Source: Somniosus microcephalus | Lineage: Eukaryota | Direction of reading: 5' to 3' | Assembly: GCA_052327205.1 (NCBI GenBank) | Contig: JBMRGM010000043.1 | Location: forward strand, 31,434,001 to 31,498,000 | Length of the DNA: 64,000 nt | Shown here: positions 848 through 63,349 of the stretch, piece after piece | Position numbering within the stretch: position 1 is the first letter of the stretch | How the letters are laid out: each line of letters opens with the position of its first letter | Translations under genes and position numbers: made by a program | Notes under the pieces: model-generated | The model's database searches: none | Seen by the model: only the letters and a program-made list of their open reading frames with translations | What the model was told of the DNA's origin: nothing

Positions 848-1110
848 AACTCTTCTCCAAACCTAAACTGAGGACTGACCCTGCAGTTGAAATATTTGAA
901 ACAATAACAATATTATTGAAACAATGCCGTACAGTAATGGGCTTCAATACTCATTTTACAAAAATGGCGAAGCTCTGATATTGACTTCATACAACACATT
1001 TAAGCTCACGGAGACAGCTTCTTTGAAGGACTCGGGGACTTACCTGTGTGAAGCAAATATTTCCTACCGCGTTGTGAAAAAGAGTGATGAGGTTTCCATT
1101 GCGGTTAAAG
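848..1110 (+). pseudogene. Frameshifted Ig exon (ELFSKPKL type), gene A
   Basis: cacAG|..|GTaagg intact but length 263 nt; first Cys region lost relative to the 6889 paralog; entry frame reaches TGA at 976-978; DSGTYLC lies in another frame. Confidence 0.8.
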
Positions 1111-2439
1111 GTAAGGACAGCCAGCTGTAATTATAGTTGAATGAAAGAATTCTTCAGGGGATTATACTTAAATAAACATACGAGAGGGATCCAGTCTGGT
1201 AAAGGATTTACCCACAAGTTTATGACGTAATAATCAATTTTGAATGCAACCTGCTAAATGACAGCGCCACCTGGTTCTTACACTATCCATACATTTGCTG
1301 AAAACCGAAGTTTTAAAAGCTGCTACGTTTAAGGACCAGCGCCCACTCCCAGTGGGTAATAGTAGCTTCCTGAAATAGTGTGGAATTGGGCGATATTGAA
1401 TTTATCTCCCATTATATGTCCCGACCGTTTTTGCATCCATTGATCTTCAATGGACAGGAATATCGCGCGTAGTGTAGAATTGGTGCAAGATTCGATGCCG
1501 TGCATTTTAACCCATAACCCCAAGGTAAAGTTACCTTCCCTGTTTCTAACTGGCATATTCAGCAGCGAGCAGAACCTGGTCAGGAACAGCAGGGTGATTA
1601 ATCAGCCAATGCCTTACCACTTACTAGCCCCGGAAATCTTTTATAGTTGAAAACTCGGGGGTAAAATTTAACATTGAGAGCGCTAAAACTGAACGGCAGA
1701 AAATTGAATTGAAATTGGCCTGTGTTTATAAAGGGTGAGCAATCTGCTACCACCGGTTTTTTACCCCAGACAAACTTGAATTTTCACCCCCTCCAATTTC
1801 AGTAGCGGTGGATGCAAAATGCCCGAGGTCACTAACGTCTGTGCCTCTGGTGCCCGGGGATTCCTTCCCAATCTTTTAGATCCGACCAATCATAACTCGA
1901 GCTTCGCATTTTCAATGGAGCAGGCAATCTGAAAACAAGGTGGGAGTTATCAATCCTGTGTCGGCAGTGGATTTCAGAAAAATTGTATTGATAGTAGCTG
2001 AGCGTTTAACATGAAGGTCCTAAAATTTGCAGGTGCTGCCACAACGACCAAGGATATTTCAGTATTTAAGACCCGGGAGTAAAGCATCGCCTGGGCTGAG
2101 AGCAGAGTTCAAATGATGGGGTTGTGGGGTTGGGGTGTTGGGGGATAATCTCACAGGACCCGCAGGATGTTTCTTCCATTCATTTCAATGGAAGGGTTAA
2201 CTTGTTCCCAAATCTAGCCACGACAGGATGTTCAGATCTCAAGTGATAACTGTGTCAATGTCCCGAACTGCATATTCCCGTGGCAGAGCGCAATCAAGGA
2301 TTATTGAAAGCCTCTTTCTCTGAGCTGCTGTCGGCTTTTCATTCTTCTGCTCATTAACGTGAGCTGTCCAAACACATAAATTGTTAAGTCTGTGATGGAT
2401 GTGGAACCCGGAAAATCCATGCATTATTCTATTTTATAG

Positions 2440-2718
2440 AGGTCTTCTCCATACCTACACTGAGGGCTGAGTCTGGAGCTCAATTATTTGTGGACCAACA
2501 GTTAAATCTCGCCTGTTTGGTTAAAATATTTCGATCCAATACTTCCTTGAGACTCGTATTTTACAATGATGGACAATCTCTCACTTCAGCGGCAGACAAC
2601 AACTATTACATCAAGAAGACATCTCGGCCGGACGATTCGGGGAATTACTGGAGCGAAGCAACTACTTTGAACAGTGAGGTGAAGAAACTGAGTAATCAGG
2701 TTTCCGTTTCAGTCAGAT
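2440..2718 (+). CDS. Ig exon (FCRL D3-like), second Cys replaced by Ser
   Basis: 279 nt, phase 1-1, EVFSIPTLRAESG..LAC..DSGNYWSEATT..VSVR, donor GTGAGT. Confidence 0.75.
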
Positions 2719-3773
2719 GTGAGTACAATTTAAGACAATGTTATAACACTTTTAAAGAGAACATGAAAATCATAGAATACGGGTAGCGTACACCAGGGAA
2801 GTAAAAGTGTATTCACCAGGATAGACTTGAGGTATTGGGACTAACACTACCGGGTTAGCCATAGCTAAAGGTTATTTCATTAGTGGTTTTTAAATGCAAA
2901 TTCCGAAATTGGGCGATTAGGGAAAGATATTTTCTCTGATTGCGAAGACAGGAAGGAGGGATCAGTAATGTATAATTATCATTAAAGCGGGAGGGTAGCG
3001 CTTAGAAGGACGTTCTTTATATAGACGAGTGCTGGAACATAGAATGATTTGCCAGGTGGAGCGGTGGAGTTAGATAGAATTTTACAGTGAACATGAGGCT
3101 AGTGGCAGTGCCCTCAGGCCTACTGATGTGCGCCTGTCACTGCCCTACAGAAACCAGCGTAAGCCCGTCCCAACATAGGCAGATCTCTTGCTAATGGATG
3201 AGAGAGTGTAGCTGAGGCCAGGAAGGTTTGGCGCACTCTTTCCTTATCGTCACAACGCAACTCGGGCACTGTGTGCCCTCTGGGAGGCTCAGAAAGCAAA
3301 AGGAGCTGGATGCACACCTTCCATAATCTGGTCGGAGGGGGGGATGGAATGCACTTCACAGAATCCGGTGGAGTTTCCTTCTGTTGAGATCAATGGAGTA
3401 CATTTACGGTGAGTTCGGTAAGCAATAAGTGATCATTAGTGCTAGATTTTCTAATCCCTTATGTGCTCAGGCGTTGCTTAACCGTCGTTCCCAAAATAGT
3501 TTATTTTCAGTGTATCAAACTAAGAAGAGCTGGGCCAAATGGTGGGGAGCTGCTGCACGAGGATAGATTATCAATAAACCCCATTTACAACCATCAGTAA
3601 ATTCAACACCACCCGACTGCTGTTTCCTTTCTGTTCTTCTTTTTCCCAGACTTGCCTGGAGTTGGGATTGGGGTTTTCTCGTGTCCAATGTATACGGGCT
3701 GTTGTGGAGCAGTTCTCAGTTTGAGTTAAGCATTTGTTAAGCTAAAACCGCCACATTTTGTTCCCAACATTAG

Positions 3774-4031
3774 ATCGCAAAGTGGCCTTCAATGTCGACC
3801 CACCTTCGGTTTTGGAAGGAGGTGTTCTGAATCTGAATTGTTGGTTCAGAATGCATTATTGGAGGCATAAAGATGTTGGCTTTTACAAGGGCAATATAAG
3901 GATTCACTCAATGAAGTTGACCGATCGGAGAGCTCTGCATAGCATTAGAGTGAATAGTTCAAAAGACAGCAGATCATACCATTGCACTGTTGGCAATAAG
4001 GAATCACGAAGTGTTCATGTTCACGTTCAAG
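3774..4031 (+). CDS. Ig exon (FcR D2-like)
   Basis: 258 nt, phase 1-1, DRKVAFNVDPPSVLEGGVLNLNC..VGFYKG..SYHC..VHVQ; tAG / GTACGT. Confidence 0.85.
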
Positions 4032-4167
4032 GTACGTCGGCAATATTTCAATTGGCGATATCGCTCTTGGATATTTATCCATATTACAGGTCCGAGAGGT
4101 TCTGAATCTGTCCACATTTATGCATAGCTGTGTGAGCTCGGAAGAATTTGTTCGTGTTAGGTCATAG

Positions 4168-6888: not shown

Positions 6889-7167
6889 AACTCTTCACCA
6901 AACCTAAACTGAGGTCTGAGCCTGCAGTTGAAATACTTGAGGGAGACCAGTTAAAATTCATCTGTTTTATTGAAAATATACCGTCAAATATTTGCTTAAA
7001 ATATTCATTTTACAAAAATGGCACAGCTCTGATCTTGACCCCATACTACAAATATATTCTCACTGAGGCAGCTTCATTGAAGGACTCAGGGACTTACCAG
7101 TGCGTAGCAAATGCTTTCGACTTTGGTGTGAAAAAGAAGAGTGATGAGGTTTACATTTCGGTAACAG
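6889..7167 (+). CDS. Ig exon (FCRL D3-like), intact; not in the ORF track
   Basis: 279 nt, ELFTKPKLRSEPAVEILEGDQLKFIC..YSFYKNG..DSGTYQC..KKSDEVYISVT; cAG / GTATGG. Confidence 0.88.
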
Positions 7168-8355: not shown

Positions 8356-8634
8356 AGCTCTTCTCCGAACCTACTTTGCGGGCTGATTCTGGAGCTCAAT
8401 TATTTGAGGGCCAACAGATAAAACTCGCCTGTTTGGTAGAAATATTTCGATCCAATTCTTCCTTGAGACTCGTATTTTACAAAGATGGACAACCTCTCAA
8501 TTCAGCGGCAGACCACAGCTATTACATCAGGGAAGCATCTCGGCCGGAAGATTCGGGGATTTACCGGTGTGAAGCAACTACTTTGAACCGTGAGGTGAAG
8601 AAACTGAGTAATCAGGTTTCAGTTTCAGTCAGAC
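8356..8634 (+). CDS. Ig exon (FCRL D3-like)
   Basis: 279 nt, ELFSEPTLRA..LAC..VFYKDG..DSGIYRCEATT..KKLSNQVSVSVR; tAG / GTGAGT. Confidence 0.9.
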
Positions 8635-9324: not shown

Positions 9325-9612
9325 GAATCCCAGTGTCAAAACCGGAACTGGCAATCAGCCCTGGTGAAGAGTTAATAGAAGGAGACACAGCGTCGTTAAC
9401 CTGCTCAGTGTTCAACGGTTCTACCCTGATTACTTACATTTTCTACAAAGACCCGGATAAAGAACTCCTCCGTGAGGAGTCCAACCTAACCGAAATTAAT
9501 TACCAAATCAGTGAAATCAACCAAAGCACCCAAGGGGATTATAGTTGCGGTGTTTCAAACAAAGCGACAGGACGTCCTCTGCAAAGCGATGTTGTTACAG
9601 TTTCAGTGATAG
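9325..9612 (+). CDS. Ig exon (FCRL D5/PECAM-like)
   Basis: 288 nt, RIPVSKPEL..LTCSVFNGSTLITYIFYK..QGDYSCGVSN; cAG / GTGAGT. Confidence 0.9.
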
Positions 9613-11810: not shown

Positions 11811-11912
11811 CACAAAGTCACACAACCGCGATCACAGCAGCCGTTCTTCCACTTTTTCTGATCGCTACCCTGATTGCACTGGTTTCCTTCAAACTTCGGA
11901 AAAAGAAACAAG
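11811..11912 (+). CDS. Transmembrane exon, gene A
   Basis: 102 nt, AQSHTTAITAAVLPLFLIATLIALVSFKLRKKKQ: hydrophobic span then basic stop-transfer; cAG / GTGAGC. Confidence 0.9.
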
Positions 11913-12439: not shown

Positions 12440-12470
12440 ACAATTCCTCAAGTGTTTCACAGCCGCAGGG
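12440..12470 (+). CDS. Cytoplasmic mini-exon 1, gene A
   Basis: 31 nt, phase 1-2, DNSSSVSQPQG; ccAG / GTAAGT; identical in gene B. Confidence 0.8.
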
Positions 12471-12774: not shown

Positions 12775-13535
12775 ACAGGCCAGTCAGCCTAACATAGTTA
12801 TTTGGAACCATTATTAGGGAAAAAATAAACTTTTATTTGGAAATCATGGTTTAATCAAGGAGATCCAACATGGATTTGTTGAAGGCAAATCGTGTCTGAC
12901 AAACTCGATTGAATTCTTTGATGAGGTAACAGAAACTTTTGATCAAGGTAGTGTAGTAAATGTTGTATATTATAGACTTTCGGAAGGCAGTCGACCGAGG
13001 CTTGTTAAAAAATATGTAAACTCATGGGATTAAGGGAACGTGGCGGTATGGATAGGGAATTAGCTCGGTGACAGGATGCAGAGTGTGGTGGTGGATGGAT
13101 GTTTCTCAGACTGGGAGGCGGTTTTGCAGTTCTGTTCCCCAAGGGTCAGTTTGGGGTCCATAACTCTTTGCAATTGCAATGAGCGACCGAGATTAAGGTG
13201 TAGGGGGCAACATTGTAAACTTGCAGATGACACATAACTTGGCCAGGTAGTAGATAGTGATGAGGATACTTGTAGTCTTCAGGGTAACATAGACAGGAAT
13301 GGTTAAATGGGCAGAAGCATGGCACTTGGAGTTCAACCCTGAGAACTGTGAAGTGATGTACTTCTGGAGAACTAAACTGGAAAGACAATATACAATAAAG
13401 GACTCGATTTTGAAAATGGTGGATGAGCAGAGATGACTTGGTGTGCTTATAAACAAATTCTTAAATATGGCAGGACAAGTTGCTAAGTTGGTTAAAGCAG
13501 CATAGGGAACACTTGTATTTTTTAAATAGCGGCTT
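12775..13535 (+). mobile_element. Old degenerate CR1 RT fragment (continues 15064-15900; paralog 43910-45520)
   Basis: Disrupted QHGF..GKSCLTNL, DF.KA and ADDT motifs. Confidence 0.8.
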
Positions 13536-16021: not shown

Positions 16022-16113
16022 GGTGACAACTGAAAATAGATCTGTACCTCCGAGTGAAGAAACATCTGCGAGCAATTTCGAGTATGCAGTTGGGGGATCA
16101 GCCCCAAATACTG
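16022..16113 (+). CDS. Cytoplasmic exon 2, gene A (FEYAVG)
   Basis: 92 nt, phase 2-1, VTTENRSVPPSEETSASNFEYAVGGSAPNT; aAG / GTAAGC. Confidence 0.8.
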
Positions 16114-17096: not shown

Positions 17097-17153
17097 CTTC
17101 TAGTTCTGACCAGGTAACCTACAGTTTAGTACAAGGCACGAAGCCCATGGAAG
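17097..17153 (+). CDS. ITIM exon, gene A (VTYSLV)
   Basis: 57 nt, phase 1-1, ASSSDQVTYSLVQGTKPME; pyrimidine tract, cAG / GTAAGG. Confidence 0.85.
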
Positions 17154-17886: not shown

Positions 17887-17952
17887 ATATTACCGGAAAT
17901 GCTGCCAATTTAGTGTATTCGGAGGTCACTATCAGAAAGTCACGAGACTGTG
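17887..17952 (+). CDS. ITIM exon, gene A (LVYSEV)
   Basis: 66 nt, phase 1-1, DITGNAANLVYSEVTIRKSRDC; tAG / GTAAAT. Confidence 0.85.
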
Positions 17953-22325: not shown

Positions 22326-22357
22326 GTAATGATGGTGGCGCCTCAGGAAGGAAACAG
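22326..22357 (+). CDS. Cytoplasmic mini-exon, gene A
   Basis: 32 nt, phase 1-0, GNDGGASGRKQ; cAG / GTAAGT; supplies the phase shift required by the last exon. Confidence 0.8.
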
Positions 22358-23840: not shown

Positions 23841-23969
23841 GCTAACAAGAATGGTCCCAACGACTATTGTGTCACATACGCCATAGTTAACCGTGCAAAC
23901 ACTGAAGCTAGTTTGGAAGGAGGCCCAATGGAAGAAGGCTGTGTCTACGAAAACTTTCCACGGAAATAA
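23841..23969 (+). CDS. Terminal coding exon, gene A (ITIM VTYAIV, YENF)
   Basis: ANKNGPNDYCVTYAIVNRANTEASLEGGPMEEGCVYENFPRK*; ccAG acceptor, phase 0. Confidence 0.88.
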   Translation, partial: ANKNGPNDYCVTYAIVNRANTEASLEGGPMEEGCVYENFPRK

Positions 23970-28916: not shown

Positions 28917-28947
28917 ATGATTCACATCTGTCGCCTTCTGACCTTGT
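28917..28947 (+). CDS. Signal peptide exon S1, gene B
   Basis: ATG..31 nt MIHICRLLTL then GTAAGT, phase 1; paralog at 58073. Confidence 0.72.
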
Positions 28948-31676: not shown

Positions 31677-31706
31677 TGCAAATTACTCATCAGGCGACCA
31701 CACAAG
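31677..31706 (+). CDS. Signal peptide mini-exon S2, gene B
   Basis: 30 nt, phase 1-1, LQITHQATTQ; strong pyrimidine tract, gcAG / GTATGA; paralog at 60806. Confidence 0.75.
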
Positions 31707-34005: not shown

Positions 34006-34260
34006 CCCATGTCCCAGAAGTAGTCCTTAGCAATCCGAGCGATGGAATCGTGAAAGAAGGGGAGACATTTTACCTGCATTGTCGATACAGAGGCATGAAT
34101 AAATGGGCTTATTGGTATAAAGATGAGACTTATATTCATTTTAAATATATGTTCTTTGAAAGATATGCAGATAGTCGCAGTGGAGCGTCTTACCAGTGTT
34201 CAGTGCCGCCGCCTTGGTCCTCCTCTGAGAAGAGTAAACCTCTGGATTTAGTCACCATTG
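34006..34260 (+). CDS. Ig exon D1, gene B
   Basis: 255 nt, AHVPEVVL..EGETFYLHC..YWYKD..GASYQC..LDLVTI; cAG / GTAGGT. Confidence 0.88.
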
Positions 34261-36076: not shown

Positions 36077-36343
36077 CTTCTGATATGAATTTAACTCTGG
36101 AAGTGAATCCAACATCCGCACTGTCAGGTGACAGTATTATCCTGAAATGTTTGATGCCTTCCTGGAAATGGAGAGGAGGTTTTCCCTTCCTGTGGTATCG
36201 AGATAAACAGTTAATAGCAGAAACTGACGAATCTCAGTACACCATAGAAAACGCAAAAGAGTCAGATACGGCACCATATCGGTGTGAACTCAAAATACGT
36301 TACAGGAAGTGGATCTCCCCGGATGTAACCATCACCATAAAAA
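36077..36343 (+). CDS. Ig exon D2, gene B
   Basis: 267 nt, ASDMNLTLEVNP..GDSIILKC..LWYRD..DTAPYRC..SPDVTITIK; gcAG / GTTGGT. Confidence 0.85.
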
Positions 36344-36429
36344 GTTGGTCACTGCTTTTCTTTTTCATTTTCTTTATTTGATCTGGTAATGAGCTGTTGA
36401 AGGATGTGAAGTATTCTAAGAATCCTTGG

Positions 36430-37131: not shown

Positions 37132-37409
37132 AACTCTTCTCCAAACCTAAACTGAGGACTGAGCCTACAGTTAAAATATTTGAGGTAGATCAGTTAAAAT
37201 TCATTTTTTTTATTGAAACAATGCTGTTCAATATTAGGCTTCAATACACATTTCACAAAAATGGCAAAGCTCTGCAGTTGAATTCATACATCAACTCTAA
37301 GCACATGGGGGCAGCTTCTTTGAAGGGCTCGGTGACTTAGCCTTGTTGAGCAAATGCTTTCTACCACCGTGATAACAACAGAGTGATGAGGTTTCCATTA
37401 CGGTAGAAG
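37132..37409 (+). pseudogene. Ig pseudo-exon (ELFSKPKL type), gene B
   Basis: Acceptor AG changed to CG, first Cys to Phe, in-frame TAG and TGA near the second Cys. Confidence 0.85.
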
Positions 37410-38744: not shown

Positions 38745-39023
38745 AGCTCTTCTCCAAACCTACATTGAGGGCTGATTCTGAAGCTCAAATATTTGAGGGC
38801 CAACAGTTAAATCTCGCATGTTTGGTTGAAATATTTCGCTCCAATTCGTCTTTGAGATATGTATTTTTCAAAAATGAACAAGCTCTCAATTCAGCGGCAG
38901 ACCACAACTATTACATCAAGGAGACATCACTGCTGGACGATTCGGGGATTTACCAGTGTGAAGCAAGTACTTTGAACAGTGAGGTGAAGAAACTGAGTAA
39001 TCAGGTTTCTGTTTCAGTCAGAC
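38745..39023 (+). CDS. Ig exon (D3-like), gene B
   Basis: 279 nt, ELFSKPTLRA..LAC..DSGIYQCEAST..VSVR; tAG / GTGAGT. Confidence 0.9.
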
Positions 39024-39902: not shown

Positions 39903-40190
39903 GAATCCCAGTGTCCAAACCGGAACTGGCAATCAGCCCTGGTAAAGAGTTACTGGAAGGCGACACAGCATCGTTAACCTGCTCAGTGTTCAACGGTTCT
40001 ACCCCGATTACCTACATATTGTACAAAGGCCCAAATAAAGAACTCTTCCGAGAGGAGTCCAACCTAACCGAAATTACTTACCAAATCGGTAAAGTCAACC
40101 AAAGCACCCAAGGGGATTATATTTGTGGTGTTTCAAACGAAGCGACCAGACGTCCTCTACACAGCGATTTTGTTACGGTTGCAGTGCTAG
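39903..40190 (+). CDS. Ig exon (D5-like), gene B, canonical acceptor mutated
   Basis: Open 288-nt paralog of 9325-9612; TG replaces AG at 39901-39902; in-frame AG at 39910-39911. Confidence 0.72.
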
Positions 40191-41846: not shown

Positions 41847-42149
41847 TTCCTGCAGCTGGTGCTTCTCTCACTTCCAATGCCAACAAAACTGAGATTTCAG
41901 CGGGGGACCGTCTCTTTCTCCAGTGCCTGGTGAAGAGAGGCACTGCACTGCTTTTCCGCTGGTACCTGAACAACCAACAGTTAGGAAACAACAGCGAATC
42001 TTATCACTTAAGCAGGGACGGGAGTGAACTCATTATCAATTCATTCCAGACAGGCCATGGAGGTCGATATCACTGTGTAGCGACCAACAGAGGGAGCTTT
42101 GAAGGAATAGTAATGACAACCAGCAATTATATCGATGTCACGGTACCAT
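41847..42149 (+). CDS. Membrane-proximal Ig exon, gene B
   Basis: 303 nt, VPAAGASL..GDRLFLQCLVKRGT..FRWYLN..HGGRYHCVATN..IDVTVP; tAG / GTAACA. Confidence 0.85.
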
Positions 42150-42979: not shown

Positions 42980-43081
42980 CACAAAGTCACACAACCGCGA
43001 TCACAGCAACAGTTCTTCCACTTTTTCTGATCGCTGCCCTGATTGCACTGGTTTTCTTCAAACTTCGGAAGCAGAAACAAG
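42980..43081 (+). CDS. Transmembrane exon, gene B
   Basis: 102 nt, QSHTTAITATVLPLFLIAALIALVFFKLRKQKQ. Confidence 0.9.
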
Positions 43082-43606: not shown

Positions 43607-43637
43607 ACAATTCCTCAAGTGTTTCACAGCCGCAGGG
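43607..43637 (+). CDS. Cytoplasmic mini-exon 1, gene B
   Basis: 31 nt, DNSSSVSQPQG; cAG / GTAAGT. Confidence 0.8.
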
Positions 43638-45638: not shown

Positions 45639-45730
45639 TGTGGCAACTGAAAATAAATCTCTAACCCCGAGTGAAGAAACATCTGCGAACAATTTCGAGT
45701 ATGCAGTTGTGGGATCAGCCCGAAATACCG
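45639..45730 (+). CDS. Cytoplasmic exon 2, gene B (ITIM-like FEYAVV)
   Basis: 92 nt, VATENKSLTPSEETSANNFEYAVVGSARNT; cAG / GTAAGC. Confidence 0.82.
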
Positions 45731-46720: not shown

Positions 46721-46777
46721 CTTCTATTTCCAATCATATAATCTACAGTGTAGTCCAAGGCACGAAACCTATGGAAG
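46721..46777 (+). CDS. ITIM exon copy 1, gene B (IIYSVV)
   Basis: 57 nt, ASISNHIIYSVVQGTKPME; cAG / GTAAGG. Confidence 0.82.
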
Positions 46778-47556: not shown

Positions 47557-47613
47557 CTTCTAGTTCTGATCAGATAACCCACAGTTTAGTACAAGGCACG
47601 AAGCCCATGGAAG
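47557..47613 (+). CDS. ITIM exon copy 2, gene B (Tyr to His, ITHSLV)
   Basis: 57 nt, ASSSDQITHSLVQGTKPME; splice sites intact. Confidence 0.78.
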
Positions 47614-48378
47614 GTAAGGATTCGCTGTGTTACTTTGCTGGAGGGCTTGTTAACTACTGTAAGGGTAGTGACTGTCTTCAGATTGTGAGACATCATCTGG
47701 GAAGAGCCTGAATCGATTGATGCATTATAGGACTGAAACCACAATACCAGTATTTGTAAATGAAAAAAATCACTATAGGCACTTTGTAAGTTCCATCTCT
47801 CGGGAGTAGTATCCTTAGAACCCGCACACAAACTCCCCTGTTCTGATTCTTAGATAACATCATAATTGGCTGGACAATTAATGTTGCCATAAACTGCAAT
47901 GACGATAACAAATGCTTAATATAAGTCGATCAATAAAGTTGAAGGCAAATAATGTGTACTTTTGGTGGCAAACATCATCCATTCTTGGACATTTAAAACA
48001 ATGCTATTCAATTAATGGTTATATATCATCCTTATTAAACTTATGGAAATGACATCATCTATTCCCATGCACTAAATTCATATTATGGATACTAATACGG
48101 TTGTCTCAATACATTATCGCTAGCAATTAATTTATATCAAGCAATCAATCAGTCTACCTCTGTAAATAGCTATCCATGTATCCATCAATATCTTTCTATC
48201 TATGTATCTATCTATCTTTATATCTATCTTCCAAATATCTATGTATCTTTCTATCTATCACTCCATGTCTTCCTCCCTATTTCTCTATATATATCTATCG
48301 TCCCTCTATCATCTATATATTAATCCATCTTAATGAAGCCTTATTTTTGTCTTGTTTTCTCTTTTTGTTTCTGTTTAG

Positions 48379-48444
48379 ATATTACCGGAAATGCTGCCAA
48401 TTTAGTGTATTCGGAGGTCACGATCAGAAAGTCACGAGGCTGTG
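48379..48444 (+). CDS. ITIM exon, gene B (LVYSEV)
   Basis: 66 nt, DITGNAANLVYSEVTIRKSRGC; tAG / GTAATT. Confidence 0.85.
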
Positions 48445-51400
48445 GTAATTTCTGTCAATTGATCGCAGCTGTTGCTAAGCAAGATGATAATTACAGTTCT
48501 ACATAATGTTGGGTTATTCCTCTGCTTGATATAGTTGGAATGAGGTACATGGACTGTAAACTAAATAGTGGGGAGGGGGGAGGGTTCAGTTGAAGGGGAA
48601 TTTAGAAAGTCAAACAGAAAGGAGGAGGTAACAGTGCAAGGTAGCGATAGGGGTAATGATAACCAGAGATTGACAGGAGGAGACAAAGCATACAGACATA
48701 AACGTGCACTTGCAAACAGATTCAGAGTAGTTAAAAATGGTATAAAAATAAATAAAAGCTCTTTAACTGAATGCATGCAGCATTCATAACAGGATAGATG
48801 AGTTGCCGGCACAAATCGAAATAAATGGGCATGATCTGATAGTCATTACAGAGACGGGGTTGCAAGGTGACCAATTCTGGGAACTGAATATTCAAGGGTA
48901 TTTGATATTTCGGAAGAATAGGCAGAAAGCAAAAGGAGTTGGGTAACTCTTTTAATAAAGGATGTGATCAGTGCAGTGGTGAGAAATGATATTGGCTCAG
49001 AATATCAAAATATAGAATTTGTTTTAACGGAGATAATAAATAGTAAGGGAAATAAATCATTAGCGGGAGCAGTCTATAGCACTCCTAACTGTAGCTACAC
49101 TGTGTAGGACAGTGTATAAATCAAGAACTAATAGGGGCTTGTAAGTAAGGTACTGCGATAATCATGGGCGATTTTAATATTCATATAGCTAGAACAAATC
49201 TAATTGACAAGGTTAGCCTTGCGGACGAGTTCATAGAATGTATTCGGTATGGTTTCTTAGAACAATACGTTGTGGAATCAACCAGGGAGATGGCTATTTT
49301 AAATCTGGTAATATGTAATGGGGCAGGATTAATTAATGATCTCATGGTAAAGGATCCTCTTGTGAAGAGCGATCATAGCATGATGAATTTCTAATTCAGA
49401 TTCAGGGTGAGAAACTTGGGTCTGAAACTTAAATAAATTCAATTACAAAAGGTATGAAGAAAGAGTTGGCTAAAGTAGACTGGGAAAATAGATTAAAGTG
49501 TAAGACGGTAGATAGGCAGTGACAGATATTTAATGAGATTTTTCATAACTCTCAGCAAAGATTTATTGCAGTGTGAAAGAAAGACTCTACGAGAAGGATG
49601 AACATCCGGGGCTAACTGACGAAGTTTAGGATGGTATCAAATTGAAAGAAAATGCATAATATGTTGCAAAGATTCGTAGTAGGTGAGAATTGGGAAATTT
49701 TTGAAAATCAGCAAAGGATGACTAAAAAATTAATAGAGGTAGAAGATAGATTATGAAAGTAAACTAGCAAAGAATATAAAAAAACAGAGACTAAGAGCTT
49801 CAACAGGTATATAAATGAAAGATAATAGCTAAAGTAAACGTTGGTCCCTTAGATGATGGGACTGGGGAATTAGTAATGGGAAACGGGGAAATTGCAGAGA
49901 CATTTAACAAATATTTTGTATTGGTTTTCACGGTAGAAGACACAAAAAGCATCCCAATGATAATTGATAATCAAGGTGCTGTATTCACAATATATATCTA
50001 AAATTTGGGTGAGGGTCCCAAATGTAATATTTCCAAGTTTGCTGACATCACAAAACTAGGTGGGATTGTGAGTTGTGAGGAGGAGGCTAATAGGCTTCAA
50101 GCTAATTTAGACAAGTTGATTGAGTGGGCAAATACATGGCAGATGCAGTATAACGTGGATAAATCTGAAGTTATCCATTTCAGTACGAAAAACAGAAATG
50201 CAGAATATTATTTAAATGTTGATAGATTGGGAAATGTTGATGTACAGACGGACCTGGGCGTCCCTGTACACCAGTCACTGAAAGCAAACATGCAGGTGCA
50301 GCAAGCAGTTAGGAAGGGAAATTGAATGTTGGCCTTCATTGCAAGAGGAGTTGAGTACAGGAGCGAGGATGTACATTTATACAGGGCCTTGATGAGACCT
50401 TGGGAGTACGGTGTACAGTTTTGTTTTCCTTACCTAAGAAAGGATATACTTACGATAGAGGGAGTGCAGCGAGGGTTCATCAGACTGATTCCTGGGATGG
50501 CAGGACTGTCGTCTGAGGAGCGATTGGGCCGACTAAGCTTTATTCACGAGAGTTTAAAAGAATGTGAGTGTATCTCATTCAAACGTATAAAATTCTGACA
50601 GGGCTAGACAGACTGGATGCAGGGAGGATGTTTCCCCCGGCTGGTGGATCTAGAAGGATTGGTTACATTCTCAGGATGGCGTACATTCAAGGTTCTTAAA
50701 TGAAGTGGCTGCAAAGATAGTCGATGCATTGGTTGTAATCAACCAAATTTCCCTGGATTCTAGAGAGCTCCCAGCGGCTTGGAAATTCGCAAATTTAACG
50801 CTCCAATTGAAGAAAGGAAAGAGGCCAAAAGCAGGAAGCTATTGGCCAGTTAGCCTTACATCTGTCATTGGGAAAATGATGGAATCCATTATTAAGGAAT
50901 GAATAGCAGGACATATAGAAAATCATAATGCCATCTACTTGAGTCAACATGGTTTTATGGAAGGGAAATTGTGCTTGACAAATTTATTGGAGTCCTTTGA
51001 GGATGTAACGAGGAGTGTGGATAAAGGGGAACCAGTAGATGTAGTGTATTTGAATTTGCAAAAGTCATTCGCTAAGGTGCCAGATAAAAGGTTACTGCAC
51101 AAGATAAGAGCTCTCGGGCTTGGGGGTAATATATTAGCATGGATAGAGGATTGGCTAACTAACAGAAAACAAAGAGTCGGGATAAATGGGTCATTTTCCG
51201 GTTGGCTAACTGTAACTAGTGGGATGCCACAGGTATCAGTTCTGGGGCCTCCACTATTTACAATCTATATTTATGACCTGGCCAAATTTGCTGACGATAC
51301 AAAGGTACATGAGAAACAAGTTGTGAGGAGGACACAATTAGTTTGCAAAGGGATATAAATATGTTAAGTGAGTGGGCAGAAATTCGGCACATGCAGTATA

Positions 51401-52479
51401 ATGTGGGAAAATATGAGATTATCCACTTTGGTAAGAAAACTAATGAAACAAATTATTATTTAAATGGGGAGAGACTACCTAATGCTGCCATACATAGGGG
51501 ACTGGGTGTCCTCATACTTGAAACACAAACGGTTAGCATGCAAGTACAGCAAGTAATTAGGAAGGCAAATGGAATGTTGACCTTTATTGCCAGGGGGTGG
51601 AGCATAATAGTGGGGAAGTCTTGCTACAACTGGAGTATTGCGTGTAGTTCTGGTCCCCTTATTTCAGGCGGGATACACTTGCATTGGAGGCAGTTCAGAG
51701 ATGGTTCACTAGGTTAATTCCTGAGATGAAGGGGTTGTCTAAAGAAGAAATGTTGAGCAGGGTGGGCATTTACGCATTGGAGTTTAGAAGAATGAGAGGT
51801 GATCTTATTGAAACATATAAGATTCTGAGGGTGCTTGACAGGGTAGATTCAGGGAGGATGTTCCCCCTCGTGGGGGAATCTAGCAGTAGTGGACAAAGTT
51901 ACAGGATATGGGATCGCTCTTTTAAAACGATGATGAGGAGGAATTTCTTCTCTGAGGTTGTGAATCTTTGGAATTGTCTAACCCAATGAGCTGTGGAGGC
52001 AGAGTCATTGAGTATATTCAAGGTGGAGATAGACATATATTTGAGCTACAGGGGAGTTAAGGGTTTTGAGGAGCGGATGGGAAAGTGGGGATGAGGCCAA
52101 GTCAGATCAGTCATGGTCGTATTGAATGGTGGTGCAGGTTCGAGGGGCCGAATGGCCTACTCTTGCTCCTATTTATGTTTCTCATGAAATATCACGTAGA
52201 TGTTATTAGCAGGTGTAATTTTAACCTAACTCAGCCTGGTCGAAAAGGGACTGGGTCTGGTGAAATCCCTGTTGTCAATCGCACCCAATTTTACTCTCCT
52301 ACTACAAGGGAGAGTAAAGTCCATTGGGTGTACACCCACCCTGAAATTGTCCCGATCTCGTCAGTTTACTGCCAGGGTGGGTGATACTAAAATGACCCCG
52401 GATTAGGCTGGATTAATCTGATTCTGTTCATCAACTTCCCCAGATTGTTGCCTTTATAATGCATCTGCTTTATTTACAG

Positions 52480-52511
52480 ATAATGATGATGGCGCCTCAG
52501 GAAGGAAACAG
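52480..52511 (+). CDS. Cytoplasmic mini-exon, gene B
   Basis: 32 nt, DNDDGASGRKQ; cAG / GTAAGT. Confidence 0.8.
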
Positions 52512-53984
52512 GTAAGTTTTCTTTAGAGGGGAAAGATGCTGGTGAGAAATATCACGACCAATGCGGGTAGATTTCTAACTAACCTTCGCAAAGTAAACTG
52601 TCGGCCATCAGTTTTAGCAATGGCCCGATTGAAACACACACCCTTATCAATAAGATATTCCTTTGGACTGTGAAACGAGCAGCACATTCGCTGTCCACCC
52701 GTTATGGTCCCACACTGCCCAAAAGCAATTTTAACCCCGATGTCTATTATTCTCTATCATTGGGACAGATATGCTGCTTGCGACTTGGGCTTAAAGAGGG
52801 CGATGACGGTCTTTCACACAGAATAGAAAACACACATTTTTAATTTGCAATGATTTGAATTAAAAATAGAATCCGGCGGTTCCAGTCGACGCCAGTTTTA
52901 AGCCTGGGCCGAATTTGTGAAATCTAAATCATTCTGTCTGCAAAGGTCGCTGCTAAACTTGCTCCACACCACTAAAGTAGCCCCTGATTAGTAATTTAAA
53001 TCCCGACCATTATTTTAAAATTCAGTTGCCAGTTGTTTACAGAATAATAAAGAACATTTTAGTTTCGTTCCACCGAAAGATCATTGCAAACATGGGTGCA
53101 GTAGATTATTGGTTACATAACTGGATCAATAATCCAGAGGTCTCGAATAATGGTCCGAAGATATGAGTTCAAATCCCAGCACTGGCAGCTGGGGAAAGTA
53201 AATTCAGTTAATTAAATACATCTGGAATAAAAAGCTCATAACAGTAATGGTGACCATGACACTCTCTGGTTGTTGTAAAACCCAACTAATGTCCTCAAGG
53301 AAGGAAATTGGCTGTCCTTACCTGGTCTACCCTATATGTGACTCCAGACTCACTAGCAATGAGGTTGACCCTTAACTGCCCCTAAAATGGCCGAGCAAGC
53401 CAATCAATTGTACCAAACTGCAAGAAAAGGCATTAACCCTATGGGAACACCTCCCCCTCCAAGTCACACACCATCCTGACTTGGAAGTATATTGCCATTC
53501 CTTCAGCGCTGCCGGGTCAAACTCCTGGAACTCACTCCCTACCAGCACTGTGGGAGCACCTTCACAACACAGACTGCAGCATTTCAAGAAGGCGGCTCGC
53601 CACCATCTTCTCAAGGGCAATTAGGAATGGGCAATAAATGCTGGCCTTGCCAGCGACGCCCACATCCCGTCAATGAATAAAAAATTATCATCGCTTGTTT
53701 AAATTTAGTCGGTGGTTTATTCATTGCTCGTTTCAATCCAACCATTTTATTTTGATTTTTAACTATAAAAGTAAATTAATAGAGGAATTATAAGTGAAAT
53801 TGTGTGAGCTCAGCCAATTAATTGTCAGTAGTTTTGACCATACTGTAAATCGGGCAATATTGAATTGGCCATCCATTATCCATCTCTCCCGACTTCCCTT
53901 CCACTGAAATCACCACTGATTCTCTCTCGCCAGCTGTGCACCATCACCTGAGACCAATTTCAGCCCCATATTCTTTAATTCCAG

Positions 53985-54113
53985 GATAACAAGATTGGTC
54001 CCAGCGACTATTGTGTCACGTACGCCACAGTTAACCGCACAAACACTGAAGCTAGTTTGGAAGGACGTCCAATGGAAGAAGGCTGTGTCTACGAAAACCT
54101 TCCACGGAAATAA
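53985..54113 (+). CDS. Terminal coding exon, gene B (ITIM VTYATV, YENL)
   Basis: DNKIGPSDYCVTYATVNRTNTEASLEGRPMEEGCVYENLPRK*. Confidence 0.88.
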   Translation, partial: DNKIGPSDYCVTYATVNRTNTEASLEGRPMEEGCVYENLPRK

Positions 54114-57100
54114 GAGAGAAGCAGGATTAAAAAGCATGGATACAACAAGAAAACAGAATGGAGGCAACGACAATCAACTTGTGCTCTGTGCAAACTACCT
54201 GCCCTCAGGGACTTTAGTCTGAAGGCAGGTTAGGCCATTGTTCCTTGTGCAACGCCTTCTAGGCACAGCGTTCCTGCCCACCAGCCATTCAATTTATACA
54301 TATGTTTTACTCTGACAGGACTTTATATCTCGAGGGATATCATGTCGCAAGCTTTGCAGCTGATATTTTGCACAGGGAACCTATGTGTGGCTTTGGTGGT
54401 GCTACGTGCAAGTCTATACAGTGTGTAAGAATATTGCACCGGAACGTACACCCAGGCTAGCCATGTTCTAATGCAATTAGTTAATGGATGCGTTTGGGGC
54501 TCTTGCTCTCTTGTTCCGCCAGTGTACTTGCATTCTTCCAAAACTGCAGAGGGAGATCAGTGGATCCCCTGGAGAAATTATGCAAATGCCCGAAGATGAT
54601 GGGAGAAATCCTGTAGCAATTTCTAGGGTCAATTTTATCTTAAGTCATGTTGTAAAATGAATGTTATCGAACTGACCACCTATGTGACCCCATGACCCCA
54701 TGACATATTTCCTTTTCCATTAACTTCAATGTAAAGTAAAACCGGGCATGCTGTATAATGGGAGCCTTGATTGATATCGTCCATTTGCCACTCTCGCCCA
54801 ATATTCAAATTATTCCAATCTATATGAATGCCAGAAAAAAACTGTGTATAGAGTAAGTGGTTACTGTTTAATCTTCATCAATTGGGAGTTTAGCATTGCA
54901 TTGGCAGAGCGCAGGGTAGAATATCTGGTGGGAAGGATGGCCCATTACTTGCCAAGCCCATCGAATTTTGCTTTCTTTCAACCTTCAAAAAGCAGGCCGT
55001 TCCGTTACCGGCATCCCTTGTGCCAAACTTTCCTTCCACGTTCCGGCAGTACAGACTGAACTTTACCTCACCACATATTAGTGCCAGATGCATAAGACAT
55101 AGCGTTTTGTAATGCTACATGGATGATGGGATTTTTAAAATTTACACGGAATTTAAAGCACAGTAACTGGCATTCTGCCCAAGTGGCCTGTGCTGGCGTT
55201 TATGTTCCACACGAGACTCTTCTCACCTTCCCTCATCTAATCCTATCAACATATCCATTTTGTAACATATAACATAAAAACATAAGAATTAGGAGCAGGA
55301 GTAGACCATATGGTCCCTCGAGGCTGCTCTGGCGTTCAGTAAGATCGTGGCAGATCTTCGACCTTAACTCCACTTGCCCGCCCGATTTCCATATCCCTTG
55401 TTTGAACTAGAATCCAAAAATCGATTTTATCTCAGCCTTGAATGTACTCAATGATTCTGCATACACACCAAATTGGGGAAGTGCATTACAAAGACTCACA
55501 ACCCTCTGAGTTAAGAAATTCCACCTCATGGCTGACCCCATAACCTCAGACTATGTCCCCGAGTTTTAGAATCTCCAGCCAGGGGAAACTGCCTCTCAAC
55601 ATCTATCCTGTAAATCCCCCCAGAATCCTAGATCATCTCTCATTCTTCTAAATCCCAGTGAGTATGGTCCCAATCTACTCAATATGTCCTCTTCGGACAA
55701 CCCTCTCATCCCGGGAATCAATCTAGTGGACCCTCATTGAACCGCCTCTGTGATGGAGACCACAAAAGGACACAATACTCTAATGTGGTCCAACAACATT
55801 TCTATACAAATTTAACATGGCTTCTCTCCTTTTCCATTCATTTCCTCTAGAAATGGACTCCAATACTTCGGTAGCAACTTGTTTTTCTAATTTTAATGAT
55901 TTGTGAATGTGCACCCCTGGATCCCTTGCTCCTCTACCCCATTTAGATTCTAATTTTTCGAGAATAATGTGGCTTCCTCATTCCTCGGACCAAAATTCAC
56001 AACCTAACTATGTTAAAATTCGCTTGCCATGTACACGCCCATTCAGCATGTTTATTAACGTCTTTTTGTATTTTATCGTGCTTCAACAATAACTGTTTTA
56101 ATCGTTGAATAATAAATACAATTTTAAGAAATATTCCCTGTTGTTCACAGATTGACATCAAGTGTAAGTCTATTCAGAACGATTTCAACCAAACCTTCTG
56201 CTAATTCAATGCACAAATACAGTGGCTTTAGTTTGTATTTGGGGAATGACCATACGGTACTGCCTGGAGACTCCCTCCAAATGAGTGGGTAGGACAGGGG
56301 AGGGAAAATATATTTCTGATGTCTTTAACTCATATTCCGCTGCATATTTAAAATATATATATTTATTTTAATCACTAAATATTCTGGGATGCGGCACAAT
56401 ACGAAAATGGAAACAATTAATTTTGATGATGGCGCCAAAACGATTAATCTCTTTTTCTAAAAGTTAGAGAAAGGAATAACAAAAATTCTGTTAGTTCCTT
56501 ATGGGCATTCCATATATTGTTATAGCGCATTGTCGGTCTGTTTTATCTACCTATTGATCTATCTTTTTGTGTTAGATTTACTAATTATCTAACTATGTGT
56601 CTGTTTATTCATCGTCAGTATCACAAATAATCAAAGGCATGCAACAATAGGACAATTGAAGTTCCAATTATGGATTGTACCAGTAGAATACTACAGGTAC
56701 TAACCATAGACTCTGTCAGTGGGACAGTATAATTGACAAACAAAGGCCTGTACGAGTAGGACAATAAAGTTTGAAAAAGACCTGCAGCAATAGGACAATT
56801 TAAACAGTCATCAAAATATCTGATCTAGTATAGGTACTACTCATAGGCATGCACATATAGGACAGTATAACAAATGATTAGAGACATGCAGCAGTCGGAC
56901 ATTATAGGCACTATTTATAGAGCTGTACCAGAAGGACAGTGAATGTACTGAGCATTGCCCGCCACCTGTAGGGCTATATATGTACTGATTACTAACTGCA
57001 CGAGTAGTAAATTAAAAATTCCTTATCCAGTGTCTCTTTATCGCTCCCAGTCATAGACAGACACCAATTGAACTGCGCAGATTCTAATTAGAGTTCGCCA

Positions 57101-58072: not shown

Positions 58073-58103
58073 ATGAAGCACATCTGTCGCCTTCTGATCT
58101 TCA
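58073..58103 (+). CDS. Signal peptide exon S1, gene C
   Basis: 31 nt MKHICRLLIF then GTAAGT. Confidence 0.72.
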
Positions 58104-60805: not shown

Positions 60806-60835
60806 TGCAAGTTACTCATCAGGCGACCACACAAG
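60806..60835 (+). CDS. Signal peptide mini-exon S2, gene C
   Basis: 30 nt, MQVTHQATTQ; tcAG / GTATGA. Confidence 0.75.
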
Positions 60836-61219: not shown

Positions 61220-61810
61220 AATAGACAGTTCTTTGATGAAGTAACAGCGAGTGTTGATGAAATTAGTGCGTTAATGTTGGTTATAGACTTTCAAAAAGCG
61301 CTTAATGAAGATCAACGTAACAGACTTGTTAGCAAAATTGAAACCAATGTGAATAAGGGGAAGTGGCAGTGTGGTTAAGAAATGGACTGAGACAAAAAGC
61401 AGAGACTAGTTGTGAAGTGAATATTCAGCGGTGTCTCGCAGATGTCTGTATTGAGACCTCTGTTCTGTCTGATATTTATATATCACCTGGATTTGGGTAC
61501 ACATGGGCACAATTACAAGCCTTACAAAAGTCATGAAGCTCGGAAATGTAGTAAGGAATACGAAAGGTCGAAGCAGGCTTCAGGATGATAAAGACAGAGG
61601 GGCGAAATAGGCAGACACATGGCAGATACAATTTAATGCTGGAAATTGCAAAGGAAAGTTACTAAAAGTGTACCAGGGACACGGGATTTCAGTTGCATGG
61701 AGAAACTAGGGCTGTTCTCCTTTGAGCACAGAAGTTTAAGGTGTGATTTGATAAAGGTGTTCAAAGTCATGAAAGCTTTTGATACAGTAAATAAGGAGAC
61801 ACTTTTAAAA
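61220..61810 (+). mobile_element. Degenerate CR1 fragment
   Basis: DFQKA and LGLFSFEHRSLRCDLIKVFK homology. Confidence 0.7.
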
Positions 61811-62142
61811 TGTAAGTTAATTGTTATATTTGAAACGCCTACCACCTGATACAGGGAGGCGATTGTGCCACAAAACCATTGGTCCTTATGAAAATCATAG
61901 CGGGCAGAGATTCGGGCTAAAGGGATGGTAAGCCTACCGATCCCATCTCGAGGTTCTTACCACCCGATTTCGGCAAGTTAATGTCACCTCTTAAATAGAA
62001 ATTTTGGTCAACAGCCCGCCAAAAGTTAGCGCCTGTTTGGGACACTGAGTAGAAATAACCACTCTATTTATTACAGTGGATATTTCATAGATTAGAAGTT
62101 CAATATTTCTAACAACAAATTCCTTTTAATGTCTTTCTGCAG

Positions 62143-62376
62143 CTTCTGGACCGGAAGTGCTGGTTAGTTATCCCAGCAGTGGAGTCGTAAAGGAAGGAGA
62201 TACATTTAAACTGCAGGGCCGATACACTTATTGGTGGAAAAATAATGAAAAGTTACCTGAATCTTATGGGGATATTTATGAATCGCTTGTCGACAGTAGC
62301 AGTGGCGGCTCTGACCAGTGTGAAATGTTTTCGGTAGAATGGCGGAGGAGTGAGACTTTGGAAGTGGTCACCATCG
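62143..62376 (+). CDS. Ig exon D1, gene C, lacking the first Cys
   Basis: 234 nt open, ASGPEVLV..EGDTFKLQG..YWWKN..GGSDQC..LEVVTI; cAG / GTAGGT. Confidence 0.75.
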
Positions 62377-63088
62377 GTAGGTGAACTTTGACACTTAAAA
62401 TCTGTATTTATCTACCGTCTTTCACGACCTCCGATAGCACCATAGTGGGCAGCGAGTGAGCCAGGCCTATTGTTGATTATTGGCTGCTGAGTCAAACCGC
62501 TGGAAGTGGCCAGCTTCGGTCGCTGAACTTTGACCCATAGTCAGCTCAGCTCTTGTCCCGAAAGGTTACGTTTTTAAAGAGGCCTCTCACTAAATCGTAA
62601 GACAGTGTAGCAAACATATTATATACTTGAACAAAATTGCCAAATGTTCACCGGGGTGAAGCGTGCGGCCAGTCCACAAAACTGAAGTCCCTCTTCCCTG
62701 ATACCATTCTGGTGCAACTCCCTTCAACCAGCTCTGTTCTAAATAGAACAATCCCAGCTCCTTTAGTCTCACCACACCTGATGAACAAATAAAAGTCGCT
62801 CCTTGAGAGAGGGCCGAGTTTGTTGCTCATTTGTAGAATCGGGTTTCTAAGTAAAAGTTATTTGATGAACGTTTGCAGGACAACATACGGGGAGTCAGCT
62901 GAACATTAGAAGGGACACGTGACTTTATAATGCCACACCTGTCGCTATGGCTTTTCGGGTTATAGATGTGTTCATTACTGAAGTGATTAGTATAGCTGCA
63001 CTTTAAAGGAAATATACTATAGGATGTCATACATGTAATTTAACATATTCCAATTTGTACTTACTTAATATTTCTTTCATACTGTCAG

Positions 63089-63349
63089 CTTCTGATATGA
63101 TTATAACTCTTAAAGTAAATCCAAGAGCCGCGCTGTCAGGAGAACCAATTATCCTGAATTGTTTGGTGTCTGACCAGAAAGGGACAGGATACTTCCTGTG
63201 GTATCAGAAAGAAGAGATAATAATTGGAATTTTTCAATCTCAATACATCATAGCTAAAGTGGATATTGCAGATGAGGCATCTTATCGGTGCGAACACAGA
63301 ATATGCTACAGGAAGTGGCTCTCACCGGAAGTTAACCTCACCATAACAG
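63089..63349 (+). CDS. Ig exon D2, gene C
   Basis: 261 nt, ASDMIITLKVNP..IILNC..LWYQK..DEASYRC..SPEVNLTIT; cAG / GTTAAT. Confidence 0.85.

Follow-up and report, generated by a model that had tools for sequence, protein, structure and literature searches.

Probable inhibitory receptors of a Fc-receptor-like gene family in the shark Somniosus microcephalus

Two genes, A and B, in a 64,000-nt stretch of the Somniosus microcephalus genome (GCA_052327205.1, JBMRGM010000043.1:31,434,001-31,498,000, forward strand; hereafter the window) are, on balance, best explained as inhibitory receptors of the FCRL lineage whose ligand would be a fast-changing molecule other than antibody Fc. Judging from sequence, the window genes are likely part of a shark Fc-receptor-like family of about 40 genes and probable inhibitory receptors. 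Around this cluster lie more than 100 exons that belong to another, LILR-like family of receptors. The original prediction had described three multi-ITIM paralogs; its description (Ig exons, uncharged TM, three ITIMs and YEN) held for A and B, the only two of the three with TM and tail inside the window, but failed for the third, gene C, which has neither the uncharged TM nor the conserved ITIMs.

Gene models in the window

All features given here lie on the plus strand. Gene A starts 8.8 kb upstream of the window, with its leader and first three Ig exons 0.2-8.8 kb upstream. Inside the window we found a frameshifted D3-type (delta) pseudo-exon of 263 nt (848..1110) and an open D3-type (epsilon) exon without the second Cys, which is not in the 813-aa model (2440..2718). 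These are followed by the Ig exons gamma (D2-like, 3774..4031), delta (6889..7167) and epsilon (8356..8634), both of FcR D3 type, and zeta, of FcR D4 or PECAM1 D6 type (9325..9612). The uncharged TM exon (11811..11912) precedes tail exons c1 (31 nt, 12440..12470) and c2 (92 nt, 16022..16113), the ITIM exons VTYSLV (17097..17153) and LVYSEV (17887..17952), tail exon c5 (32 nt, 22326..22357), and the last coding exon with VTYAIV, YENF and the stop (23841..23969).

Gene B begins with a leader exon of 31 nt from the ATG (28917..28947) and a second of 30 nt (31677..31706). Its Ig exons are a divergent alpha (34006..34260) and a beta (36077..36343), both weakly D1/D2-like, an FcR D3-type epsilon (38745..39023), a zeta (39912..40190), and an eta of the amphibian/coelacanth FCRL membrane-proximal type, "D6" (41847..42149). 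A dead delta exon, with a stop and with its acceptor and first Cys lost, lies at 37132..37409. The usual acceptor of zeta is TG, and the exon is entered via a downstream in-frame AG at 39911; in an upstream copy of gene B the zeta acceptor is intact and epsilon is absent. The uncharged TM exon (42980..43081) is followed by c1 (43607..43637), c2 (45639..45730), the ITIM exon IIYSVV (46721..46777), a duplicate of this first ITIM exon with Tyr changed to His (47557..47613), the ITIM exon LVYSEV (48379..48444), c5 (52480..52511), and the last coding exon with VTYATV, YENL and the stop (53985..54113).

Gene C has leader exons at 58073..58103 and 60806..60835, a shortened alpha exon that has lost its first Cys (62143..62376), and a beta exon, its single intact Ig exon within the window (63089..63349). 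Past the window it has several broken Ig exons and an Arg-bearing TM whose donor is altered, and a search for ITIM exons there found none. Gene C is outside the inhibitory pattern and is degenerate past the window.

The predicted exon structure was borne out in most respects. The Ig exons have phase 1/1 with AG/GT borders, and splicing of the listed exons gave open models from ATG to stop for A (813 aa) and B (669 aa), with in-frame AG/GT joins throughout. The named motifs were all found on the plus strand, at 17114, 17910, 23871 and 23946 in gene A and at 46738, 48402, 54015 and 54090 in gene B. The split leader exists as two exons in A, B and C, but with sizes of 31+30 nt and not 30/21. Models A and B have 6-7 tail exons each, with three ITIMs plus YEN, and a fourth Tyr motif on the 92-nt tail exon (FEYAVV in B, FEYAVG in A) had earlier been overlooked. 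As a chance control, 20 shuffles were compared with the window: the Ig C..C pattern occurred 6 times vs 0 and YENxPR twice vs 0, whereas the bare ITIM consensus was no commoner than in shuffles (308 vs 337), so that the ITIM calls rest on exon context and conservation. The tail motifs recur among shark and ray proteins, and the gene B tail is colinear with all five aligned RefSeq shark proteins.

Predicted signalling and ligand

The products of genes A and B would be type I membrane proteins with several Ig domains, of Fc-receptor-like lineage and presumably expressed on leukocytes. From established ITIM biology, Src-kinase phosphorylation of the three ITIMs is predicted to recruit SHP-1/SHP-2, and the YEN motif may bind a Grb2-type adaptor, pYxN being the consensus for such binding; inhibitory signalling by both genes appears highly probable. 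Arg-TM siblings and neighbouring LILR-like genes may give the opposing signal via FcR-gamma. Since the family contains ITIM-less members with an Arg-TM besides inhibitory forms, the term inhibitory, earlier applied to the whole family, was too broad.

The ligand would be a fast-changing microbial or cell-surface molecule rather than a fixed antibody Fc, and we lean slightly towards a non-Ig ligand for A and B. A rather unlikely alternative is that these proteins are true Ig receptors. As inhibitory Fc receptors they would recognise complexes of IgM, IgW or IgNAR, and would have diversified to match the numerous shark Ig loci. Among solved structures, epsilon, beta and the first exon of an edge gene match FCRL5, FcgRI, FCRL4 and FcgRIII best, which fits such a role, as does an FcR-gamma-type TM exon present on contig C40. 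The best candidate would be the edge gene itself (C43:30.272-30.286 Mb, on the contig of the window), which alone is led by a clear D1 (margin 28 bits; tree support 93) and has two D2-like exons and one D4 exon; human FCRL5 binds IgG via D1-D3 (PMC12757038). However, a clear D1 is missing from the window genes, copies vary through loss, shuffling or inactivation of their N-terminal exons, and Ig binding by FCRL5 is itself species-specific. The same paper describes hexameric IgG1 Fc as bound by FCRL5 alone among six human FCRLs and mouse FCRL5 as not binding mouse IgG or IgM Fc, so that Ig binding would not be family-wide among FCRLs.

Relation to FcR/FCRL and PECAM1

For domain scoring, the subtype profiles were built without shark rows. 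FcR D3 was the best score for 23/23 elasmobranch delta/epsilon domains (margin 16-47 bits) and D2 for 8/8 gamma domains (2-23 bits). All eight eta domains scored best as D6 (20-39 bits), a provisional label of our own. Alpha/beta margins were only 0-12 bits, and the main family has no clear D1. The delta/epsilon profile reached 68-74 bits on FcgRI and 47.7 bits on one FCRLA domain, vs at most 27 bits on any domain of six PECAM1 proteins. Model B scored 155 bits on coelacanth, 137 on caecilian FCRL3, 114-121 on sturgeon, 117 on Xenopus and 116 on squirrel FCRL5, vs 87-100 bits on PECAM1 and 68 on a CD22-like protein. Eta, the membrane-proximal domain, clades with an amphibian/coelacanth FCRL domain (support 98/97), and the domain order D3-D3-D4-like-D6-TM is common to coelacanth P0201. 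These comparisons suggest that genes A and B very probably belong to the FCRL lineage.

It is improbable, by comparison, that the family expanded from the PECAM1/Allergin-1 side, or as a sister of both, to give adhesion or checkpoint receptors that carry ITIMs. For 9/11 zeta domains PECAM1 D6 is the top-scoring type (margin 2-15 bits), and zeta joins it in a quick tree (support 88); by sequence, zeta appears as near to PECAM1 D6 as to FcR D4 and is of ambiguous type. Zeta as D5 was rejected (p 0.007). For delta/epsilon, the AU test could reject a sister relation neither to FcR D3 (p 0.415) nor to PECAM1 D3/D4 (p 0.562). The automatic RefSeq names of several relatives are PECAM-like, and among the matches listed the homologs include PECAM1 proteins and no tetrapod FCRLs. 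The Atlas gives FCRL and PECAM clusters an equal score (0.97), and PECAM1 tails share an LVYSEV-like ITIM with the family. Against this origin, a grouping of eta with PECAM1 D6 was rejected (p-AU 0.01). The PECAM1-type D3 on C21 sits within the PECAM1 clade (99/99) with the cluster domains outside it; the PECAM1-type genes and all PECAM1 D1 matches are on C21, and in profile scoring no family domain was best as PECAM1 D1-D5. The ELF-type junction, proposed earlier as an FCRL mark, is not diagnostic because frog and hyena PECAM1 carry it too. CD22/Siglec identity found no support: the CD22-like profile, built from one protein, was the top scorer for none of the domains, and no V-set hit exceeded the cut-off. 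Of the groupings to be checked, eta fell with FCRL and CD22 was unsupported, and the topology tests left delta/epsilon and zeta compatible with either FcR or PECAM1.

Family turnover, genomic setting and comparison with known receptors

The FCRL-lineage family is pan-elasmobranch, and in S. microcephalus its 108 D3-type matches and at least 40 TM exons are all on C43. The proposed birth-and-death evolution agrees with about 40 copies, exon shuffling and dead exons. Pairwise dN/dS was about 0.9-1.0 for beta/gamma/delta and 0.4-0.6 for epsilon/zeta/eta/last exon (alpha 0.43); with values near 1, relaxed copies are possible and the set may include pseudogenes. In two RNA runs of unrecorded tissue, no spliced read was present among the joints listed, and depth was <1 in exon bins. 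That the array consists largely of segmental duplicates that are in decay or inflated by the assembly, with few functional genes, is very improbable: it would suit 10 copies of the gene A epsilon exon on C43 that are 99-100% identical, with spacings of about 70 kb between several, the 16 kb upstream of the window at 99.4% identity with it, the near-repeat of C43 block 25.30-25.34 Mb at 30.30-30.34 Mb, many broken exons and this very low RNA depth, but the copies are not uniform in which exons they have or in their substitutions, the lower dN/dS is that of proximal domains and tail, and many sharks and rays have multi-gene RefSeq sets.

The family sits inside a region of about 21 Mb occupied by paired receptors of LILR/IGSF1-like type. 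TFPT-PRPF31 is on the same contig, 5 Mb from the receptor complex (CNOT3 is on C28), a linkage inferred also in two other sharks. The LILR-like two-domain family best matches LILRB2/LILR/PIR-B/OSCAR, with IGSF1 and TARM1 clusters, at modest scores (E ~1e-8 per domain); as a whole protein its top match is FCRL5, a HIDE1 domain matches too, and the trees were built without tetrapod LRC sequences. Against a frog TM1 profile its TMs scored 11-21 bits, apart from one member at 9.5, and controls reached 0.7-10; its activating form has an Arg and a late Glu in the TM exon, which also encodes a short tail, the Asn of NxxR being absent. None of the five human 1q23-type markers VANGL2, NCSTN, FCER1G, UFC1 and PRCC was found on C43, which counts against positional orthology, not homology; VANGL/NCSTN/FcR-gamma are on C40 and UFC1/PRCC on C41, an SDHC search gave no match, and no FcR-type exon occurs within the 800 kb read on C40. 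SLAM and IGSF9 are also markers of FcR/FCRL linkage (PMC2413239). A tentative and somewhat doubtful idea is that the distal 21 Mb is the surviving undivided FcR-plus-LRC complex of the jawed-vertebrate ancestor, with FCRL and LILR types interleaved near TFPT-PRPF31, signalling through FcR-gamma and including a shark antibody receptor, for which the D1-led gene at 30.27 Mb would be the candidate.

The earlier statement that surveys had found FcR/FCRL genes only from bony fish onward agrees with the literature: PMC4016189 (2014) reports no FCRL, FcR-gamma or C2-only LRC genes in sharks, and the review PMC13337447 (2026) repeats that cartilaginous fish are without Fc-receptor-like genes and asks how antibodies engage cells. 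The shark family would make the D3 and D6-type domains older than the divergence of sharks and bony fish; D6 had been described as Xenopus-specific (PMC2413239). This shark genome has both a large family related to FCRL and a large paired family of LILR-like type, besides an FcR-gamma-type exon, and so supplies named candidates to assay for Ig binding and signalling. The claim is tempered by RefSeq auto-annotation, which already names members of what had been called a poorly described family, and by a 2021 study of elephant shark in which Wang et al. reportedly found two fcrl genes together with an LRC-like one.

Among known receptors, PECAM1/Allergin-1 have related C2 domains, ELF-type junctions, a similar ITIM and a D6 near zeta, but the shark family lacks PECAM1 D1/D2 and differs in eta grouping and contig. 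The likeness to LRC receptors (LILR, IGSF1, TARM1, OSCAR), with paired forms, belongs to the neighbouring two-domain family and not to the window genes. Teleost LITRs, compared by description, and the FCRL-like proteins of sturgeon, gar and bichir are the next-best relatives, being clustered multi-Ig receptors; D3 is common to the shark family, sturgeon, gar and bichir, whereas the ray-finned proteins scored have no D6-type domain and catfish LITRs have no D3-D5 (PMC2413239). Mammalian FCRL3/4/5 and FcgRI are alike in D3-type domains, a 31-nt first leader exon and ITIM tails, and differ in a second leader exon of 21 nt vs 30 and in the extra D6-type domain of the shark. Because the 30/21-nt leader of FCRL1-6/FcgRI occurs in only a fraction of Xenopus genes (PMC2413239), the leader mismatch is compatible with family membership. 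Compared with amphibian XFL/FCRL and coelacanth FCRL-like receptors (PMC2413239; P0066, P0143, P0201), the shark family has no clear D1/D2 pair and no D5, lies away from VANGL/NCSTN, and has an Arg TM that scores like its own uncharged TM (3-5 bits), unlike frog TM1. Both have a repeated D3, a D4-like domain and the non-mammalian membrane-proximal domain; in both the leader is split, the Tyr tail spans several exons, the genes number in the dozens and have shuffled exons, and inhibitory and Arg-TM forms are intermingled.

Gene models in and around the window

The locus lies at 31,434,001-31,498,000 of contig JBMRGM010000043.1 (C43; other C numbers denote contigs of the same assembly) within a 6.45-Gb genome, and the closest named proteins come from sharks, with 72% identity in Pristiophorus and 54-62% in Heptranchias and Mustelus. 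Using exon mapping and in-script splicing, we obtained two open models on the + strand, genes A and B, in which every junction is AG/GT. The Ig exon types are named alpha to eta in N- to C-terminal order. Gene A (813 aa, starting 8.8 kb upstream of the window) comprises leader, alpha, beta, gamma, gamma, delta, epsilon, zeta, transmembrane (TM) exon and tail, and its model omits two exons, a frameshifted one (848) and one that lacks its second Cys (2440). Gene B (669 aa) comprises leader, alpha, beta, epsilon, zeta, eta, TM and tail; here a dead exon at 37132 is omitted, and zeta relies on an in-frame downstream acceptor. The tails, built from six exons in gene A and seven in gene B, each carry three ITIMs and a terminal YEN, and their fourth Tyr motif resides in a 92-nt exon that the original prediction had overlooked. 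The gene B tail aligned end to end with all five RefSeq shark proteins tried.

All motifs named in the original prediction were found on the + strand. Its claim of three inhibitory paralogs holds for genes A and B, which are open and have ITIM tails, but not for gene C, whose part inside the window is limited to a leader and two Ig exons. Past the window, four Ig exons of gene C are broken, its TM carries an Arg, and the stretch examined there yielded no ITIM exon. The cluster of FCRL-lineage receptors is real, though partly mis-described in that prediction. Ig and YENxPR patterns are present in the window and occurred 0 times in 20 shuffles. The bare ITIM consensus was rejected as a diagnostic, with 308 occurrences in the window versus 337 in shuffles and so no enrichment, and ELF-type junctions (the VQ-ELF domain boundary) were likewise rejected.

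Upstream of the window, at C43:31.407-31.429 Mb, the leader exons of gene A are tandemly triplicated in an 11.7-kb repeat (96% identical), possibly providing alternative first exons. A 499-aa LINE reverse transcriptase frame (PF00078) lies inside a gene A intron at window positions 13465-14964, and about one third of the window matches unlinked loci, that is, interspersed repeats. A search of sequencing runs turned up no RNA run containing the locus. When two RNA runs and two contig sets were mapped to window positions 34170-54169, intronic repeats dominated the signal. In this repeat-swamped mapping none of the 15 joints listed (795 more exist) connects predicted exons, and the depth of the two runs over exon bins was below 1; one contig piece stops precisely at the 36343 donor, at most a hint of splicing.

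Extent and turnover of the family

An epsilon exon query gave 108 matches after all 147 candidates were scored. Every one of them lies on C43, in the 25.3-25.5 or the 30.3-31.9 Mb interval; 56 are full-length at 68% identity or above, and 10 reach 99-100%. The TM exon query, with 40 of 46 candidates scored, gave at least 40 matches, none of them on another contig; 25 are 88-100% identical to the query, and the other 15 are 80-84% identical. An Arg near the TM start was present in all seven TMs examined, five from the 80-84% group and two others. Of the tail, no more than the first two exons turned up in these Arg-TM genes, the Tyr motif is degenerate, and most Ig exons are gone from some of them; they are candidate activating or decoy partners. 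An LRC/TM1 module as the source of the Arg TM in these ITIM-less members was rejected, because it scored 3-5 bits on a frog TM1 profile, similar to the uncharged TM. The Arg TM therefore seems to have been derived within the family.

Exon content varies between genes of the family. Mean pairwise dN/dS was 1.02 for beta, 1.00 for delta, 0.89 for gamma, 0.43 for alpha and epsilon, 0.58 for zeta, 0.61 for eta and 0.49 for the last exon, values that constitute weak evidence and come from 5-11 distinct copies each within the stretches read, broken-gene copies being kept in. At the left edge of the cluster (C43:30.272-30.286 Mb) lies a divergent FcR-like gene whose Ig exons comprise a clear D1, one D4 and two that are D2-like; going downstream, 14 kb pass before the next TM that was found, which is of the Arg type. 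Immediately past the right-hand end of the cluster, C43:31.891-31.898 and 31.956 Mb contain intronless 7TM receptor genes alongside remnants of histones H2A/H3 and three Ig exons that have degenerated. Near-identical blocks at C43:25.30-25.34 and 30.30-30.34 Mb, like the VANGL copies on C1 and C14, reflect either recent duplication or assembly duplication.

Domain relationships to FCRL and PECAM1

In a homolog search with a Heptranchias member, the top 30 of 60 proteins were all from sharks and rays, followed by sturgeon proteins and PECAM1. Members are already auto-named in RefSeq, as FCRL2/3/5, FcgRI-like, PECAM-like or otherwise. A delta/epsilon profile placed FCRL5, FcgRI, FCRL4 and FCRLA on top among solved structures, and among 1.84 billion representatives it retrieved frog, caecilian, coelacanth, gar, bichir, alligator and mammalian FCRL-type proteins (20 of 150 matches named). 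Since the PDB sequence searches gave no PECAM1 row and may under-represent its inner domains, PECAM1 proteins were compared instead, and subtype profiles were made from these and from tetrapod FcR/FCRL proteins. The best profile was D3 for all 23 delta/epsilon domains, D2 for 8/8 gamma and D6, our label for the membrane-proximal domain of amphibian and coelacanth FCRL, for 8/8 eta. Alpha and beta weakly matched D1/D2, while zeta matched PECAM1 D6 best in 9 of 11 cases by small margins. Whole-model scores ranked FCRL-type proteins above PECAM1.

Trees were built on 94-99 columns with 108, 40 and 44 rows chosen from about 250 domains, omitting near-duplicates. The FcR/FCRL origin put forward in the original prediction stood for eta, which joins the amphibian/coelacanth domain (98/97), its grouping with PECAM1 D6 being rejected (p 0.01). 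It was less clear-cut elsewhere: for zeta, D5 was rejected (p 0.007) and neither D4 (p 0.27) nor PECAM1 D6 (p 0.36) was, and delta/epsilon fall outside the PECAM1 D3/D4 clade (99/99), with tests rejecting neither an FcR nor a PECAM1 sister. That clade includes a C21 domain of the same genome and excludes one long-branch fish domain. Guselnikov 2002 draws a structural link between FcR-like genes and PECAM-1 in its title, so some FcR/PECAM1 ambiguity is to be expected. We file the family as a probable FCRL-lineage variant, not an ortholog of any mammalian FCRL.

PECAM1/Allergin-type genes are located on C21. They include a tandem array of PECAM1/Allergin-1-like genes at 69.78-69.96 Mb, each with between three and six Ig exons, and these 200 kb showed no canonical six-domain PECAM1. 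An AlphaFold model of the relative P0001 reached pLDDT 84.7 and pTM 0.48, and its Foldseek matches, sorted by Ig-string length with rmsd 19-23 A to FcgRI, say nothing on domain arrangement.

Linkage, flanking receptors and putative function

UFC1 and PRCC lie on C41, and NCSTN, VANGL and an FcR-gamma-type TM exon on C40; in human, 1q23 is home to these markers. A scan of 800 kb around the C40/C41 markers revealed no FcR-type Ig exon while detecting the C21 and C43 controls, and a genome search for SDHC gave no match. A Pfam scan of 150 of the 1203 flank ORFs returned only Ig, histone and 7TM families, with no conserved neighbour within 200 kb. TFPT (INO80F) and PRPF31, which adjoin the LRC in human, stand head to head at C43:16.25-16.30 Mb; CNOT3 has one copy on C28 and another on unplaced C984. 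Two zeta-family TM exons were located, at C40:10.607 Mb, which we take to be of FcR-gamma type, and at C14:86.66 Mb, presumably of CD247 type; ITAM exons for the two were not found. PMC4016189 reports FcR-gamma as absent from sharks.

Both cluster flanks carry Ig genes of two domains, the second of which has LILRB2 and its relatives as best matches. One form of these genes combines an Arg TM, a late Glu and a short tail in a single exon, another has an uncharged TM, and full-length relatives have Tyr motifs. Of 798 candidates for a LILR-like exon, 150 were scored; all but one of the 110 best matches (E up to 2e-9; hand count) fall on C43 at 21.5-42.5 Mb. This LILR/IGSF1/TARM1-resembling family thus has at least 109 exon matches there, activating- and inhibitory-type TMs and some inverted pairs. 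In Heterodontus (27,249,576) and Heptranchias (1,238,652) both families lie on equally sized contigs, from which we infer the same FCRL/LILR-like linkage. Dispersed multi-copy Ig exons on C39, C40, C41 and C29, with 30-37% identity to the LILR-like domain (E 1e-7 to 1e-5), may represent other expanded receptor families.

Beyond the anatomy, motifs, paired forms and turnover established here, signalling may follow established ITIM biology: binding of a putative ligand would lead to tyrosine phosphorylation and SHP-1/2 recruitment, damping activating signals that Arg-TM and LILR-like receptors could deliver via FcR-gamma. A variable microbial or cell-surface target is, by a slight preference, favoured as the ligand over the less likely Ig Fc: the N-terminal exons are subject to turnover, and according to PMC12757038 Ig binding is no common property of FCRLs. 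A like argument for a variable target is made for Xenopus in PMC2413239.

The literature searches listed no published description of this family in elasmobranchs, though supplements of genome papers may list such genes; the scale, the paired forms, the shark D6-type domain and the way a large LILR-like family is interleaved with this one were not found in print. Wang, Belosevic and Stafford reportedly described in 2021 a single LRC-like gene and two distant fcrl genes from elephant shark, as well as linkage of FCRL clusters to vangl2, arhgef11 and slam genes. Compared with LRC receptors, the Arg-form TM of the flanking two-domain family agrees with most of the description in PMC6557307, differing in that it has no Asn.
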